Program-made: the position numbers and the translations under genes | Virus record (IMG/VR): IMGVR_UViG_3300030320_000049 | Length of the DNA: 64,000 nucleotides | Origin: a virus | Reading direction: 5' to 3' (one strand) | Part shown: positions 47,241 to 47,293 of the stretch, one piece after another | Layout: every line of letters begins with the position of its first letter | Position numbering within the stretch: position 1 is the first letter of the stretch | The notes under the pieces: generated by a model | Told to the model about the DNA's origin: nothing | What the model saw: the letters and a program-made list of their open reading frames with translations, nothing else | Database searches by the model: none

Positions 47241-47293
47241 AGTCTTCCGGGACATTTGAAGCCCCTTTAATCAGCCCCGTTGGGCTAGAAGAC
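47241..47293 (-). ncRNA. anticodon-armless mini tRNA-like element (52 nt)
   Basis: GUCUUCU-AGCCC(AACG)GGGCU-GAUUAAA-GGGGC(UUCAAAU)GUCCC-GGAAGAC-U, followed by a 9-bp hairpin at 47213..47241. Confidence 0.5.

Follow-up and report, generated by a model that had tools for sequence, protein, structure and literature searches.

A probable tRNA-derived RNA gene without an anticodon arm, conserved within a phage tRNA array

The minus strand of the window (the whole 64,000-nucleotide stretch analysed here, IMG/VR virus record IMGVR_UViG_3300030320_000049) carries, within the tRNA array of a gut phage, a 52-nt element that is derived from a tRNA: the acceptor stem, a D-arm-like hairpin and a canonical T arm have been kept and the anticodon arm has been lost. 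We consider this element, termed mini-tRNA #1, to be very probably a real structured RNA gene, and its pattern of conservation suggests that it is maintained by selection and is not spacer. Anticodon-less mini-tRNAs of this kind are not unique to this site, with a second present in the same window and others in unrelated phages. The parts of mini-tRNA #1 are as follows.

47241 to 47293, minus strand: mini-tRNA #1, 52 nt plus discriminator U
47293 to 47287, minus strand: 5' strand of the acceptor stem, GUCUUCU
47286 to 47273, minus strand: hairpin, AGCCC (47286-47282), AACG loop (47281-47278), GGGCU (47277-47273)
47272 to 47266, minus strand: 7-nt linker, GAUUAAA
47265 to 47249, minus strand: T arm, GGGGC (47265-47261), UUCAAAU loop (47260-47254), GUCCC (47253-47249)
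47248 to 47242, minus strand: 3' strand of the acceptor stem, GGAAGAC
47241, minus strand: discriminator position, U

The 7-bp acceptor-like stem GUCUUCU/GGAAGAC described in the earlier note can be read directly from the minus strand, and RNAfold agrees; the label attached to it there, a GUUCUUCU-type stem, was wrong, as the strand reads GUCUUCU. The last of the seven pairs is a U.G wobble, and the five pairs of the T stem include one G.U. Between the acceptor and T stems lie only 21 nt, made up of a 5-bp hairpin with a 4-nt loop and the 7-nt linker. The minimum-energy structure returned by RNAfold is exactly this three-helix fold (-22 kcal/mol), in which the acceptor stem encloses just the hairpin and the T arm and the T arm abuts the 3' acceptor strand, as had been proposed. 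The 7-bp acceptor stem and the abutting T arm, of 5 bp with a 7-nt UUCRANY loop, are canonical tRNA features, and the fold and the sequence alike bear out that an anticodon arm (5-bp stem, 7-nt loop) is absent from the element. The folding z-score was -3.47, with none of 200 shuffled sequences as stable. RNAalifold, applied to 21 variants of the element, gave the same three-helix structure, and the covariance model R1 scored mini-tRNA #1 at 83.6 bits. Our own strict descriptor of the architecture (an acceptor stem, a small hairpin and a T arm, without an anticodon arm) has an expectation of 0.005 matches per 64 kb over both strands and matched twice in the window.

The most plausible identity for the extra hairpin is a shrunken D arm, because mini-tRNA #2 and an element from an Enterococcus phage (see below) have clear D-arm features. 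Its loop may also have retained the GG (G18 G19) through which a D arm contacts the T loop: drawn as AGCC(CAACGG)GGCU, the hairpin could expose GG if the top C-G pair opened, and, this C-G pair being invariant, covariation is uninformative here.

Mini-tRNA #1 lies between two ordinary tRNA genes, and the surrounding features are listed below.

47347 to 47419, minus strand: tRNA-Gln(UUG), upstream neighbour (ARAGORN; Rfam, 62.4 bits)
47294 to 47299, minus strand: 5' leader, ACUCCG
47214 to 47241, minus strand: perfect 9-bp hairpin UUUCUGAAA/UUUCAGAAA, directly 3' of mini-tRNA #1
47174 to 47212, minus strand: second conserved block in the same spacer, hairpin GUUGCGG(CUGGUGGUCAAGAA)CUGCAAC
47062 to 47134, minus strand: tRNA(CAU), downstream neighbour (ARAGORN; Rfam)

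ARAGORN and Rfam thus place the element where the earlier note had put it, between tRNA-Gln and tRNA(CAU) of a phage tRNA cluster, and its strand, spacing and trailing hairpin match those of real tRNAs. The perfect 9-bp hairpin said to follow immediately is indeed present (47241 to 47214), its first base being the discriminator U of mini-tRNA #1. The sequence of this hairpin is unconserved; 10 of the 13 haplotypes folded have some hairpin 0-3 nt past the element, and ordinary tRNAs of the same array are also trailed by hairpins. We conclude that the trailing hairpin is a generic feature of the tRNA array and no special device. The hairpin at 47174 to 47212 shows compensatory changes in relatives and occurs with or without mini-tRNA #1. 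On the 5' side, most haplotype types possess a CCUCCG-like motif 0-10 nt upstream of the element (with the variants CUUCG or CCUCUG), and motif and element are jointly absent from 'empty' relatives. On paper the leader CUCCG could pair with CGGRG or CCGGA within mini-tRNA #1, a pairing inseparable from the covariation of the hairpin.

Conservation was assessed in an unbiased sample of 80 loci retrieved by the neighbouring DUF2828 protein alone. This sampling replaced a first scan of IMG/VR with an exact 26-mer, which returned 92 near-identical copies and was biased by construction and uninformative for covariation. The comparative search in related phage tRNA clusters suggested by the earlier note recovered the same architecture in 56 of the 80 loci. 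Mean pairwise identity was 0.878 for mini-tRNA #1, on a par with tRNA-Gln (0.861) and tRNA-Met (0.834) and above the two spacers (0.641 and 0.718). Related phages therefore do not present the region as the unconserved spacer that the earlier note had named as a possible outcome; they carry a conserved, covarying and discrete gene-like unit. Elsewhere, in a phage database of 50,697 records searched with megablast and blastn, one 5-kb faecal fragment was the sole match to cover the element. In 185,579 species genomes there was no occurrence of either mini-tRNA pattern.

Among the variants, which represent one phage family at limited depth and may include some single variants that are assembly errors, five pairs showed compensatory double changes (acceptor pairs 1, 2 and 4; hairpin pairs 2 and 4). 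Relatedness among such sequences can inflate shuffle statistics. Both the C2.A71 intermediate and the compensated C2-G71 form were found, and 98% of cells in the alignment were paired, falling to 58% or less when the partners were slid. The T stem showed one-sided changes only. The U7.G wobble was present in 21/21 variants and the T-stem G.U in 15/21; on the plus strand both would be A.C mismatches, which identifies the minus strand as the functional one. The best-conserved positions are C3-G, U5-A, C6-G, U7.G, A8, the AACG loop, the AAA preceding the T stem, and the T arm, while the acceptor tip and the discriminator vary freely.

Exactly the mini-tRNA #1 unit is missing from 11 of the 80 loci, all close relatives and some with a 100% identical DUF2828 protein, and the element is therefore dispensable. 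The remaining array is unchanged in relatives that lost it. Another 11 relatives, with DUF2828 proteins 86-87% identical, have a different tRNA array from which the element is absent. When present it always occurs as one copy at the same site between tRNA-Gln and tRNA-Met, and no gene within +-6 kb tracks its presence.

The array continues towards a gene for a putative RNA-binding protein and, further on, an RNA ligase.

46527 to 46640, minus strand: 114-nt tRNA-shaped gene (Rfam tRNA, 48.7 bits)
46436 to 46525, minus strand: odd tRNA-shaped element, read from sequence
44832 to 46283, minus strand: DUF2828 + DUF7788/VWA protein, a phage 'Ro-like RNA-binding protein' (PHROG 850 at 2e-135; Pfam domains)
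44700 to 44771, minus strand: tRNA with anticodon UCA (opal-suppressor type), just upstream of mini-tRNA #2 (ARAGORN, Rfam)
44603 to 44653, minus strand: mini-tRNA #2, strict-descriptor match
40267 to 41469, minus strand: RtcB RNA ligase

Mini-tRNA #2, a paralogue-like second copy of different sequence, reads UCCAGUG UU UCUC(GUUGG)GAGA UUCA UGCCG(UUCAAGU)CGGCG CACUGGA U, again a tRNA architecture that lacks the anticodon arm. Upstream, 46 nt separate it from tRNA(UCA), and downstream the next ORF follows after about 20 nt. It has a folding z-score of -3.1 and is conserved in relatives, its alignment having 100% of cells paired and 6 covarying pairs. A clear D-loop-like GG is seen in its loop, GUUGG, and in the loop AACAGGUA of the Enterococcus element. 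The latter, from Enterococcus phage VRE9_3, is a 56-nt version with a canonical D loop located 116 nt upstream of a DUF2828 gene; the metagenomic phage L264 has a version of 63 nt, placed 318 nt upstream of DUF2828, for which no relatives were found in IMG/VR. These minis of other lineages are singletons without comparative support. Across approximately 250 loci, matches to the strict descriptor were limited to the mini-tRNA #1 and #2 families, and in 83 diverse DUF2828 loci (739 kb) only the Enterococcus-type element and one chance-level match were found. Given this near-absence, the anticodon-less minis are not a general partner of DUF2828. The cross-lineage search used our own descriptors; the relaxed version was too noisy (6.9 false hits per 64 kb), and a joint MAFFT alignment of mini-tRNA #1, mini-tRNA #2 and the Enterococcus element was structurally wrong. 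A 67-nt 'tetraloop tRNA' of locus L322 was dropped as a mini, as it may be an ordinary tRNA with anticodon CGA.

All the anticodon-less minis found reside in tRNA arrays beside DUF2828 and, in the window, RtcB is there as well. Mini-tRNA #1 is 0.96 kb upstream and mini-tRNA #2 0.18 kb downstream of the DUF2828+VWA gene, whose protein has homologues at 35% identity annotated as 'Ro-like'. The DUF2828 gene adjoins tRNA arrays in 56 of 81 diverse loci, and the same adjacency occurs in Listeria, Citrobacter, Bacillus and Enterococcus phages. Against the PDB, a sequence search with DUF2828 gave no Ro60-fold match, and in a profile search TROVE proteins came top, at a best E of 0.65 that is not significant. 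An AlphaFold model, built on a shallow alignment, reached a pLDDT of 53, too poor for a structure search.

Two further genes of the array are tRNA-shaped and unusual. That of 114 nt has a 51-nt insert in the anticodon region, consisting of a hairpin and then an AUAGCAA/ACAGCAA motif, and its length of 114 nt is conserved in 29 relatives. Its neighbour at 46436 to 46525 combines an acceptor stem UGCCCCG/CGGGGCA, a D-like arm, a hairpin followed by ACUGCAA, and a T arm AUAGG(UUCAAAU)CCUGU, with no obvious anticodon arm; 97-nt homologues appear in loci L304-L324. Of 82 diverse loci, 40 have insert-bearing tRNA-shaped genes next to DUF2828. Co-occurrence with DUF2828 is much closer for the longer tRNA-shaped RNAs that carry the hairpin-ACAGCAA module than for the mini-tRNAs, and the former are therefore the stronger candidates for a DUF2828 ligand.

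Since mini-tRNA #1 cannot read codons, its job would be to present the acceptor/T-arm/elbow face of a tRNA. Our favoured, tentative reading is that during infection it serves as a non-decoding mimic by which a tRNA-binding factor is occupied or recruited. It would be co-transcribed with the adjacent tRNAs from the minus strand and excised by host tRNA enzymes, with RNase P cutting at G47293 and a 3' trimming enzyme or RNase Z acting after U47241. RNase P, RNase Z and the CCA-adding enzyme all accept acceptor/T-arm minihelices. The CCA-adding enzyme would then append CCA, being needed because CCA is not encoded, to give a stable RNA of approximately 55 nt. As a decoy, the product might target a host tRNA-targeting defence or processing factor; as a cofactor, it might partner the phage tRNA quality-control/repair proteins encoded nearby, the Ro-like DUF2828 protein and RtcB. 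Recognition of the RNA body is favoured over specific aminoacylation because the junction and elbow are conserved and the acceptor tip and discriminator are free. Specific aminoacylation was considered and judged unlikely: all four bases (U, C, A and G) occur at the discriminator, variation affects acceptor pairs 1, 2 and 4, and there is no G3.U70. A possible G-1:C73 pair occurs in some type-1 variants only.

Several known RNAs share part of this architecture. RNase P, the CCA-adding enzyme and some aminoacyl-tRNA synthetases act on acceptor-TψC minihelices, and mini-tRNA #1 resembles these in its 12-bp coaxial acceptor/T stack and 7-nt T loop, so it should suit the enzymes that process tRNA ends; minihelices, however, are laboratory constructs, whereas mini-tRNA #1 is a natural gene with a conserved D-like hairpin and linker. 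The mascRNA and MEN-beta small RNAs are tRNA-like, of approximately 55-60 nt, excised by RNase P and RNase Z, and tailed with CCA. They too are small tRNA-like RNAs that cannot decode, and the structural prerequisites for processing of the mascRNA type (the 12-bp acceptor/T stack, the T loop and an unencoded CCA) are present in mini-tRNA #1; they differ in being eukaryotic, in keeping a (defective) anticodon arm and in sitting at the terminus of a long non-coding RNA whose 3' end they serve to generate, and there is no homology. The tRNA-like domain of tmRNA likewise has an acceptor stem and T arm and no anticodon, but in tmRNA a tag-peptide reading frame and pseudoknots separate the two halves of that domain and the whole runs to approximately 350 nt, as against just 52 nt here. 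The 'armless' mitochondrial tRNAs of nematodes and mites (on which see PMC6158502 and PMC2797822) are likewise extreme reductions of the tRNA fold, to about 42-55 nt; what they shed is the D and/or T arm, whereas the anticodon arm is retained and they still decode, the opposite of mini-tRNA #1.

The gene neighbourhood raises a more specific possibility, namely that the mini-tRNAs are Y-RNA analogues, RNA partners of the Ro-like DUF2828 protein that gate it or tether it to tRNA substrates or a nuclease; we regard this as unlikely. In bacteria, the tRNA-like YrlA/YrlB RNAs partner Ro60 (Rsr) in the rsr-yrlA-rtcB operon, and the synteny here mirrors that arrangement, with two mini-tRNAs flanking the DUF2828 gene and RtcB downstream. 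YrlA, which is encoded beside a Ro-type protein and RtcB, is also a non-decoding RNA: it is built from acceptor-like, D and T arms and lacks an anticodon arm able to decode. In two more unrelated lineages the minis lie 120-320 nt or less from DUF2828. The YrlA of M. smegmatis is an RNase P substrate to which CCA is added (PMC4201824), and phage TROVE/Ro proteins have been described with a tRNA-like partner (PMC7824862). Set against these parallels, DUF2828 is found without a mini-tRNA in 22 of the 80 close relatives and in almost every one of the 83 diverse loci, the hairpin-ACAGCAA RNAs track it far better, and its homology to Ro60 is supported neither by the model nor by the TROVE profile match. 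YrlA is moreover longer, with its own 5' and 3' ends making the Ro60-binding stem at the place of the anticodon stem and its acceptor stem closed by a loop, whereas mini-tRNA #1 has open acceptor ends and a DUF2828 neighbour rather than a recognised TROVE protein. The Ro60-binding terminal stem and the GNCGAA(N)G motif are absent from its 53 nt, the ends of which form the freely covarying acceptor stem, and Rfam gave no Y_RNA or YrlA match at E <= 10. A broader formulation, which we hold to be doubtful, is that arrays beside DUF2828, often with RtcB, encode non-decoding tRNA-bodied RNAs as a viral counterpart of the Ro60/Y-RNA/RtcB system. The repertoire would then have two parts, the anticodon-less mini-tRNAs and tRNA-shaped RNAs of 97-143 nt with a hairpin-ACAGCAA module in the anticodon region; the mini-tRNAs would be the tRNA-mimic component, gating the Ro-like protein or sequestering host attackers or sensors of the tRNA acceptor end or elbow.

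The earlier note had offered a processing punctuation mark, a stable mini-RNA and a decoy as roles. Punctuation is the least probable of the three, since ordinary tRNAs, one upstream of each mini-tRNA and one more after mini-tRNA #1, would do the same job. That the mini-tRNA merely draws RNase P/RNase Z to cut a polycistronic transcript, the excised RNA being functionless, accordingly strikes us as improbable. Both elements are embedded in a co-directional array, acceptor/T-arm minihelices suffice as RNase P substrates, and mascRNA/MALAT1 and mitochondrial tRNA punctuation are precedents; mini-tRNA #2, moreover, has a U run after it and is about 20 nt away from the ribosome-binding site and start codon of the ORF downstream, such that a cut would free that mRNA. 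Yet the sites would be redundant, with mini-tRNA #1 between two ordinary tRNAs and mini-tRNA #2 46 nt after one, punctuation has no need of the conserved D-like loop, AAA linker, invariant U.G and A8, and the array is otherwise unchanged where mini-tRNA #1 has been lost. A decaying tRNA pseudogene or deletion scar hitch-hiking in the array would account for the tRNA ancestry of the element, its precise absence from 11 relatives and the singleton status of the minis of other lineages. It would not account for conservation like that of functional tRNAs between spacers diverged to 64-72%, for the invariant loop and junction nucleotides, or for five compensatory pairs (with a similar record in mini-tRNA #2) and no build-up of stem-breaking changes; covariation has largely refuted this reading, which we consider highly implausible. 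Equally implausible is a mobile or recombination module of approximately 60 nt, leader ACUCCG plus mini-tRNA #1, whose structure serves spread or a recombination site. The clean filled/empty polymorphism, with borders within a few bases among genomes having 100% identical neighbouring proteins, is what such a module might leave, and phage VRE9_4, a close relative, matches just the last 30 nt of the Enterococcus query, where the element may be missing. The single copy at a constant site, the want of target-site duplications and terminal repeats, an empty haplotype that looks like one event, and the lack of copies in the species genomes all argue otherwise. An attP site or host tRNA fragment was also rejected, both acceptor strands being present, the integrase gene 9 kb away, and the species genomes without a match. 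Nor did a parent tRNA emerge: none of approximately 1,000 ARAGORN calls in related loci shares the T arm of mini-tRNA #1, the best having 5/17 mismatches.

Mini-tRNA #1 was not called by ARAGORN, which also found no tmRNA. Rfam searches (6 kb; a 221-nt query, E <= 10) gave no tRNA match to it, and at permissive thresholds chance microRNA-like matches alone. Literature searches on DUF2828, phage minihelices, anticodon-less tRNA-like RNAs and phage tRNA introns yielded no description of these elements. The anticodon-less mini-tRNAs are thus an addition to the tRNA-like non-coding RNAs, absent from Rfam, ARAGORN and the literature searched. As tRNA finders and Rfam miss such genes, the 'spacers' of phage tRNA arrays hide functional RNAs; together with the insert-bearing genes, the mini-tRNAs suggest that non-coding RNA makes up part of the phage 'tRNA islands'. 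A natural, conserved RNA comprising the acceptor/T-arm/elbow half of a tRNA would be a ready probe for whatever recognises that half in vivo; candidates are Ro-like proteins, RNase P, the CCA-adding enzyme, and toxins by which the acceptor end is modified or cut. The 'Ro-like' DUF2828 protein is widespread in phages, and for its function the mini-tRNAs would supply a concrete candidate RNA; they would also bear on the arms race between phages and bacterial defences over tRNA.

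The minus strand between tRNA-Gln and tRNA(CAU) carries an element, mini-tRNA #1, that the earlier note had described as a tRNA-like fold without an anticodon arm.

47419..47347 (-), tRNA-Gln(UUG), flanking mini-tRNA #1 (ARAGORN and Rfam)
47293..47241 (-), mini-tRNA #1
47134..47062 (-), tRNA(CAU), flanking mini-tRNA #1 on the other side (ARAGORN and Rfam)

Direct reading gives GUCUUCU AGCCC AACG GGGCU GAUUAAA GGGGC UUCAAAU GUCCC GGAAGAC U. The terminal heptamers form a 7-bp outer stem whose final pair is a U.G wobble; a 5-bp hairpin with a 4-nt loop follows immediately, and a 7-nt single-stranded linker leads to a T arm (5-bp stem, 7-nt loop UUCAAAU) that adjoins the 3' acceptor strand as in tRNA. 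The loop agrees with the tRNA T-loop consensus. In RNAfold the minimum-energy structure (-22 kcal/mol, z = -3.47) and the centroid are both this three-helix fold, a stability matched by 0 of 200 dinucleotide shuffles. The fold lacking an anticodon arm is borne out by direct reading and by the predicted minimum-energy structure, the ARAGORN and Rfam calls on both sides confirm its location, and the 9-bp hairpin said to follow it was found at 47241..47214. Mini-tRNA #1 itself was reported by neither ARAGORN nor Rfam (221-nt query, E <= 10).

A strict descriptor required a perfect 7-bp acceptor stem, then after 0-2 nt a 4-6-bp hairpin, and beyond a linker of 4-9 nt a T arm (perfect 5-bp stem, UUCNANN loop) touching the acceptor strand. 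It matched twice in the window against 0.005 expected per 64 kb (both strands), and across ~250 fetched loci only the families of these two elements matched.

44653..44603 (-), mini-tRNA #2, the second match to the strict descriptor

Mini-tRNA #2, UCCAGUG UU UCUC(GUUGG)GAGA UUCA UGCCG(UUCAAGU)CGGCG CACUGGA U, is laid out as a textbook tRNA minus the anticodon arm: 2 nt separate the 7-bp acceptor stem from a 4-bp D-type stem, whose loop contains GG, and a linker of 4-5 nt leads to the T arm. Its place is shortly after tRNA(UCA) and ~20 nt ahead of the next ORF, and it is conserved among relatives regardless of the presence of mini-tRNA #1. In 22 variants all pair cells are standard, with double changes in six pairs over all three helices. 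The acceptor sequence UCCA.../...UGGA is common to mini-tRNA #2 and some variants of mini-tRNA #1, which hints at paralogy. By comparison with mini-tRNA #2, the hairpin of mini-tRNA #1 is most simply read as a shrunken D arm; it could adopt the form AGCC(CAACGG)GGCU with GG exposed, and the hairpin's top pair is invariant.

A comparative search in related phages had been set as a check. The first IMG/VR pattern scan, with a 26-nt core, gave 92 contigs; since these were near-identical and chosen on mini-tRNA #1 itself, loci were refetched via the neighbouring 483-aa protein only. Among the 80 loci so retrieved (protein 86-100% identical across loci), mini-tRNA #1 was present in 56, always in single copy between tRNA-Gln and tRNA(CAU). 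The upstream part was too short to judge in 2, a larger, unrelated tRNA array was found in 11, and the remaining 11 showed precise absence. Filled loci read ...ACACUUUUU-ACUCCG-[element]-UUUCUGAAAUC... and empty loci ...ACACUCUUUUCUGAAAUC..., a comparison in which mini-tRNA #1 with its 6-nt leader behaves as a discrete cassette. Loss is possible even where the neighbouring protein is 100% identical. Mean pairwise identity in the 56 filled loci was 0.878 for the element, 0.861 for tRNA-Gln and 0.834 for tRNA(CAU), compared with 0.641 and 0.718 for spacers 1 and 2. A pattern search of 185,579 bacterial and archaeal species genomes found neither mini-tRNA.

Two short features accompany the element. 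In most haplotype types a CCUCCG-like motif resembling the anti-Shine-Dalgarno sequence (47294-47299, minus strand, in the window) precedes mini-tRNA #1 by 0-10 nt; it is gone together with the element in empty loci. Possible pairing partners of the motif are CGGRG in the hairpin and CCGGA where the T stem meets the acceptor. Between mini-tRNA #1 and tRNA(CAU) stands a conserved hairpin, GUUGCGG(CUGGUGGUCAAGAA)CUGCAAC (47174-47212, minus strand), with a conserved 14-nt loop and compensatory changes in relatives (C-G to U-A, G.U to G-C, G-C to A-U); it is kept in loci with and without mini-tRNA #1.

Alignment of 21 distinct variants of mini-tRNA #1 revealed standard pairs in 98% of pair cells, falling to at most 58% after the 3' partners were slid by 1-3 columns. 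Two-sided changes occur in five pairs: acceptor pairs 1 (GC, CG, UA, AU, GU), 2 (CG, UA, UG) and 4 (AU, UA, GC), and hairpin pairs 2 (GC <-> UA) and 4 (CG <-> UA). At acceptor pair 2, C2.A71 is common (36 copies) and the compensated C2-G71 rarer; the two look like successive steps of a single compensatory change. The T stem varies on one side only (G.U, G-C, A-U). Invariant positions comprise C3-G, C6-G, the U7.G wobble, the A8-U pair, C10, the C12-G pair, the three A's preceding the T stem and most of the T arm, with U5-A in 20 of the 21 variants; the discriminator may be U, C, A or G. RNAalifold independently predicted the same structure. The minus strand is the RNA strand, because on the opposite one the G.U pairs would turn into mismatches. 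This pattern of variation argues that mini-tRNA #1 is a structured RNA under purifying selection, neither spacer nor decaying pseudogene.

Read along the minus strand, the locus comprises tRNA-Gln, mini-tRNA #1, the conserved hairpin block, two tRNA(CAU), a 114-nt and a ~90-nt tRNA-shaped element, the 483-aa protein, tRNA(UCA), mini-tRNA #2, small ORFs, RtcB and terminase.

46527-46640 (-), 114-nt tRNA-shaped gene with a 51-nt insert, the same kind as in L259-L338
46436-46525 (-), ~90-nt odd tRNA-shaped element, acceptor stem UGCCCCG/CGGGGCA and D-like arm
44832..46283 (-), 483-aa DUF2828 protein
40267..41469 (-), RtcB RNA ligase

The 483-aa product matches PHROG 850 'RNA-binding protein' (2e-135) and contains the Pfam domains DUF2828, DUF7788 and VWA; its mycobacteriophage homologues (~35% identity, full length) carry the annotation 'Ro-like RNA binding protein'. 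A Ro60 fold was looked for and not confirmed: a PDB sequence search was negative, a profile search ranked TROVE proteins first at a non-significant E = 0.65, and the AlphaFold model is poor (pLDDT 53), with a helical N-terminal and an alpha/beta C-terminal half. The gene stands beside tRNA arrays in 56 of 81 diverse IMG/VR loci and in Listeria phage P100plus, Citrobacter phage Mijalis, Bacillus phage PJN02 and Enterococcus phage VRE9_3. The P100plus locus also has a ROOL RNA (L249 3462-4013; 86 bits, just under the Rfam gathering score of 99.1), flanked by the tRNA array and the DUF2828 gene, and RtcB is encoded downstream; the tRNA-DUF2828-RtcB layout is common to P100plus and the window.

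The tRNA gene just downstream of the DUF2828 gene (44700-44771, minus strand) has the opal-suppressor-type anticodon UCA in the window and L094 (ARAGORN 'SeC') and UGA (Ser), GCU (Ser) or UGU (Thr) in other relatives (window, L094, L097, L108, L111, L123, L149 and L157 compared). This may reflect an anticodon switch or gene replacement, and stop-codon read-through is possible. In the alternative tRNA array of relatives with an 86% identical DUF2828 protein, ARAGORN called a tRNA with a 4-base anticodon (acca; L163 and L173, about 2601-2674 and 3119-3192), which could be of frameshift-suppressor type or aberrant.

In 40 of 82 diverse loci, DUF2828 is accompanied by adjacent clusters of tRNA-shaped genes of 97-143 nt, overlooked by ARAGORN. 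Their anticodon region holds an insert of ~45-56 nt, which in 85 of the 111 distinct sequences is made up of a covarying hairpin and then ACAGCAA. Of 111 occurrences that bear the motif, 91 are found <=2 kb upstream of the DUF2828 gene. Rfam scored these genes as tRNA with an insert of 54-56 nt. Removal of the insert in silico restored a perfect anticodon arm in some, such as tRNA-Asn(GUU) in L280; others lack any anticodon arm, including the 46436-46525 element (hairpin then ACUGCAA, T arm AUAGG(UUCAAAU)CCUGU, no recognisable anticodon arm), which ARAGORN and Rfam did not detect and which has 97-nt homologues in L304-L324. The inserts may be mini-introns, with RtcB as a possible joining enzyme, or modules that bind the Ro-like protein.

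Anticodon-less minis were also sought in other phages.

L253 7830-7885, 56-nt mini-tRNA of Enterococcus phage VRE9_3 (PP680569.1), 116 nt upstream of the DUF2828 gene; also at L256 3830-3885

This mini, GCGAAAU UA AUUC(AACAGGUA)GAAU UAUUUAG AUGGG(UUCAAAU)CCCAU AUUUCGC U, is a perfect instance of the type, has a canonical D loop (AACAGGUA) and is identical or 99% identical in six near-identical Enterococcus phages; an annotated 'hypothetical protein' CDS overlaps it. In VRE9_4 the query matched over the last 30 nt only, so the mini may be missing there. In metagenomic locus L264 a 63-nt mini stands 318 nt upstream of DUF2828; a 120-nt tRNA(UGU) with an insert immediately precedes it (3492-3682 for the pair), and three further ACAGCAA-type motifs fall within the 320 nt preceding the DUF2828 start codon. 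Two further elements, of 66 nt in L260 and of 45 nt in Vibrio phage nt-1, are weaker candidates. A descriptor that allowed D-loops of up to 11 nt, applied to 83 diverse DUF2828 loci (739 kb), gave nothing but the Enterococcus type and one chance-level match. Given so few matches, the minis are recurrent but sporadic, and they are not an obligate partner of DUF2828.

Rfam 15, ARAGORN and the full-text literature searched yielded no account of phage genes for anticodon-less tRNA-like RNAs. Conceptually nearest to mini-tRNA #1 are YrlA, mascRNA and laboratory minihelices; it appears to be distinct from each and was therefore classed as a variant of tRNA-like non-coding RNA.

The fold, strand, conservation, covariation, gene-like modularity and genomic context of mini-tRNA #1 are established, and it is very probably a real functional RNA gene; a pseudogene, at odds with the purifying selection seen in the alignment, is highly improbable. 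We give equally little credence to a mobile cassette: the element has cassette-like boundaries but was always found singly, at one position. That it serves as redundant processing punctuation is doubtful; it sits between two ordinary tRNA genes, which would already supply such cleavage sites, and some relatives dispense with it. An analogue of a Y RNA, serving DUF2828, is slightly less doubtful though still unlikely. The gene arrangement here is reminiscent of the bacterial rsr-yrlA-rtcB locus, in which the Y RNAs are tRNA mimics (PMC4201824; PMC7824862); mini-tRNA #1 can be lost beside an unchanged DUF2828 protein.

Mini-tRNA #1 is organised like the neighbouring tRNA genes: it lies on their strand at similar intervals, is trailed by a hairpin and has no encoded CCA. 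Its 12-bp acceptor/T stack and T loop are the feature recognised by RNase P, 3'-end nucleases and the CCA-adding enzyme. Together these make it most likely that the RNA would be excised and matured as a tRNA, to ~55 nt. The conserved positions cluster at the junction and elbow, not at the acceptor tip or discriminator. From this and its inability to decode, we infer that charging by a specific synthetase is less likely than binding of the RNA as a tRNA-shaped body. Our tentative reading, which falls somewhat short of even confidence, is that mini-tRNA #1 mimics the tRNA body, and it may act as a decoy for a factor reading the acceptor end or elbow of tRNA, or assist the adjacent repair and quality-control proteins as their cofactor.
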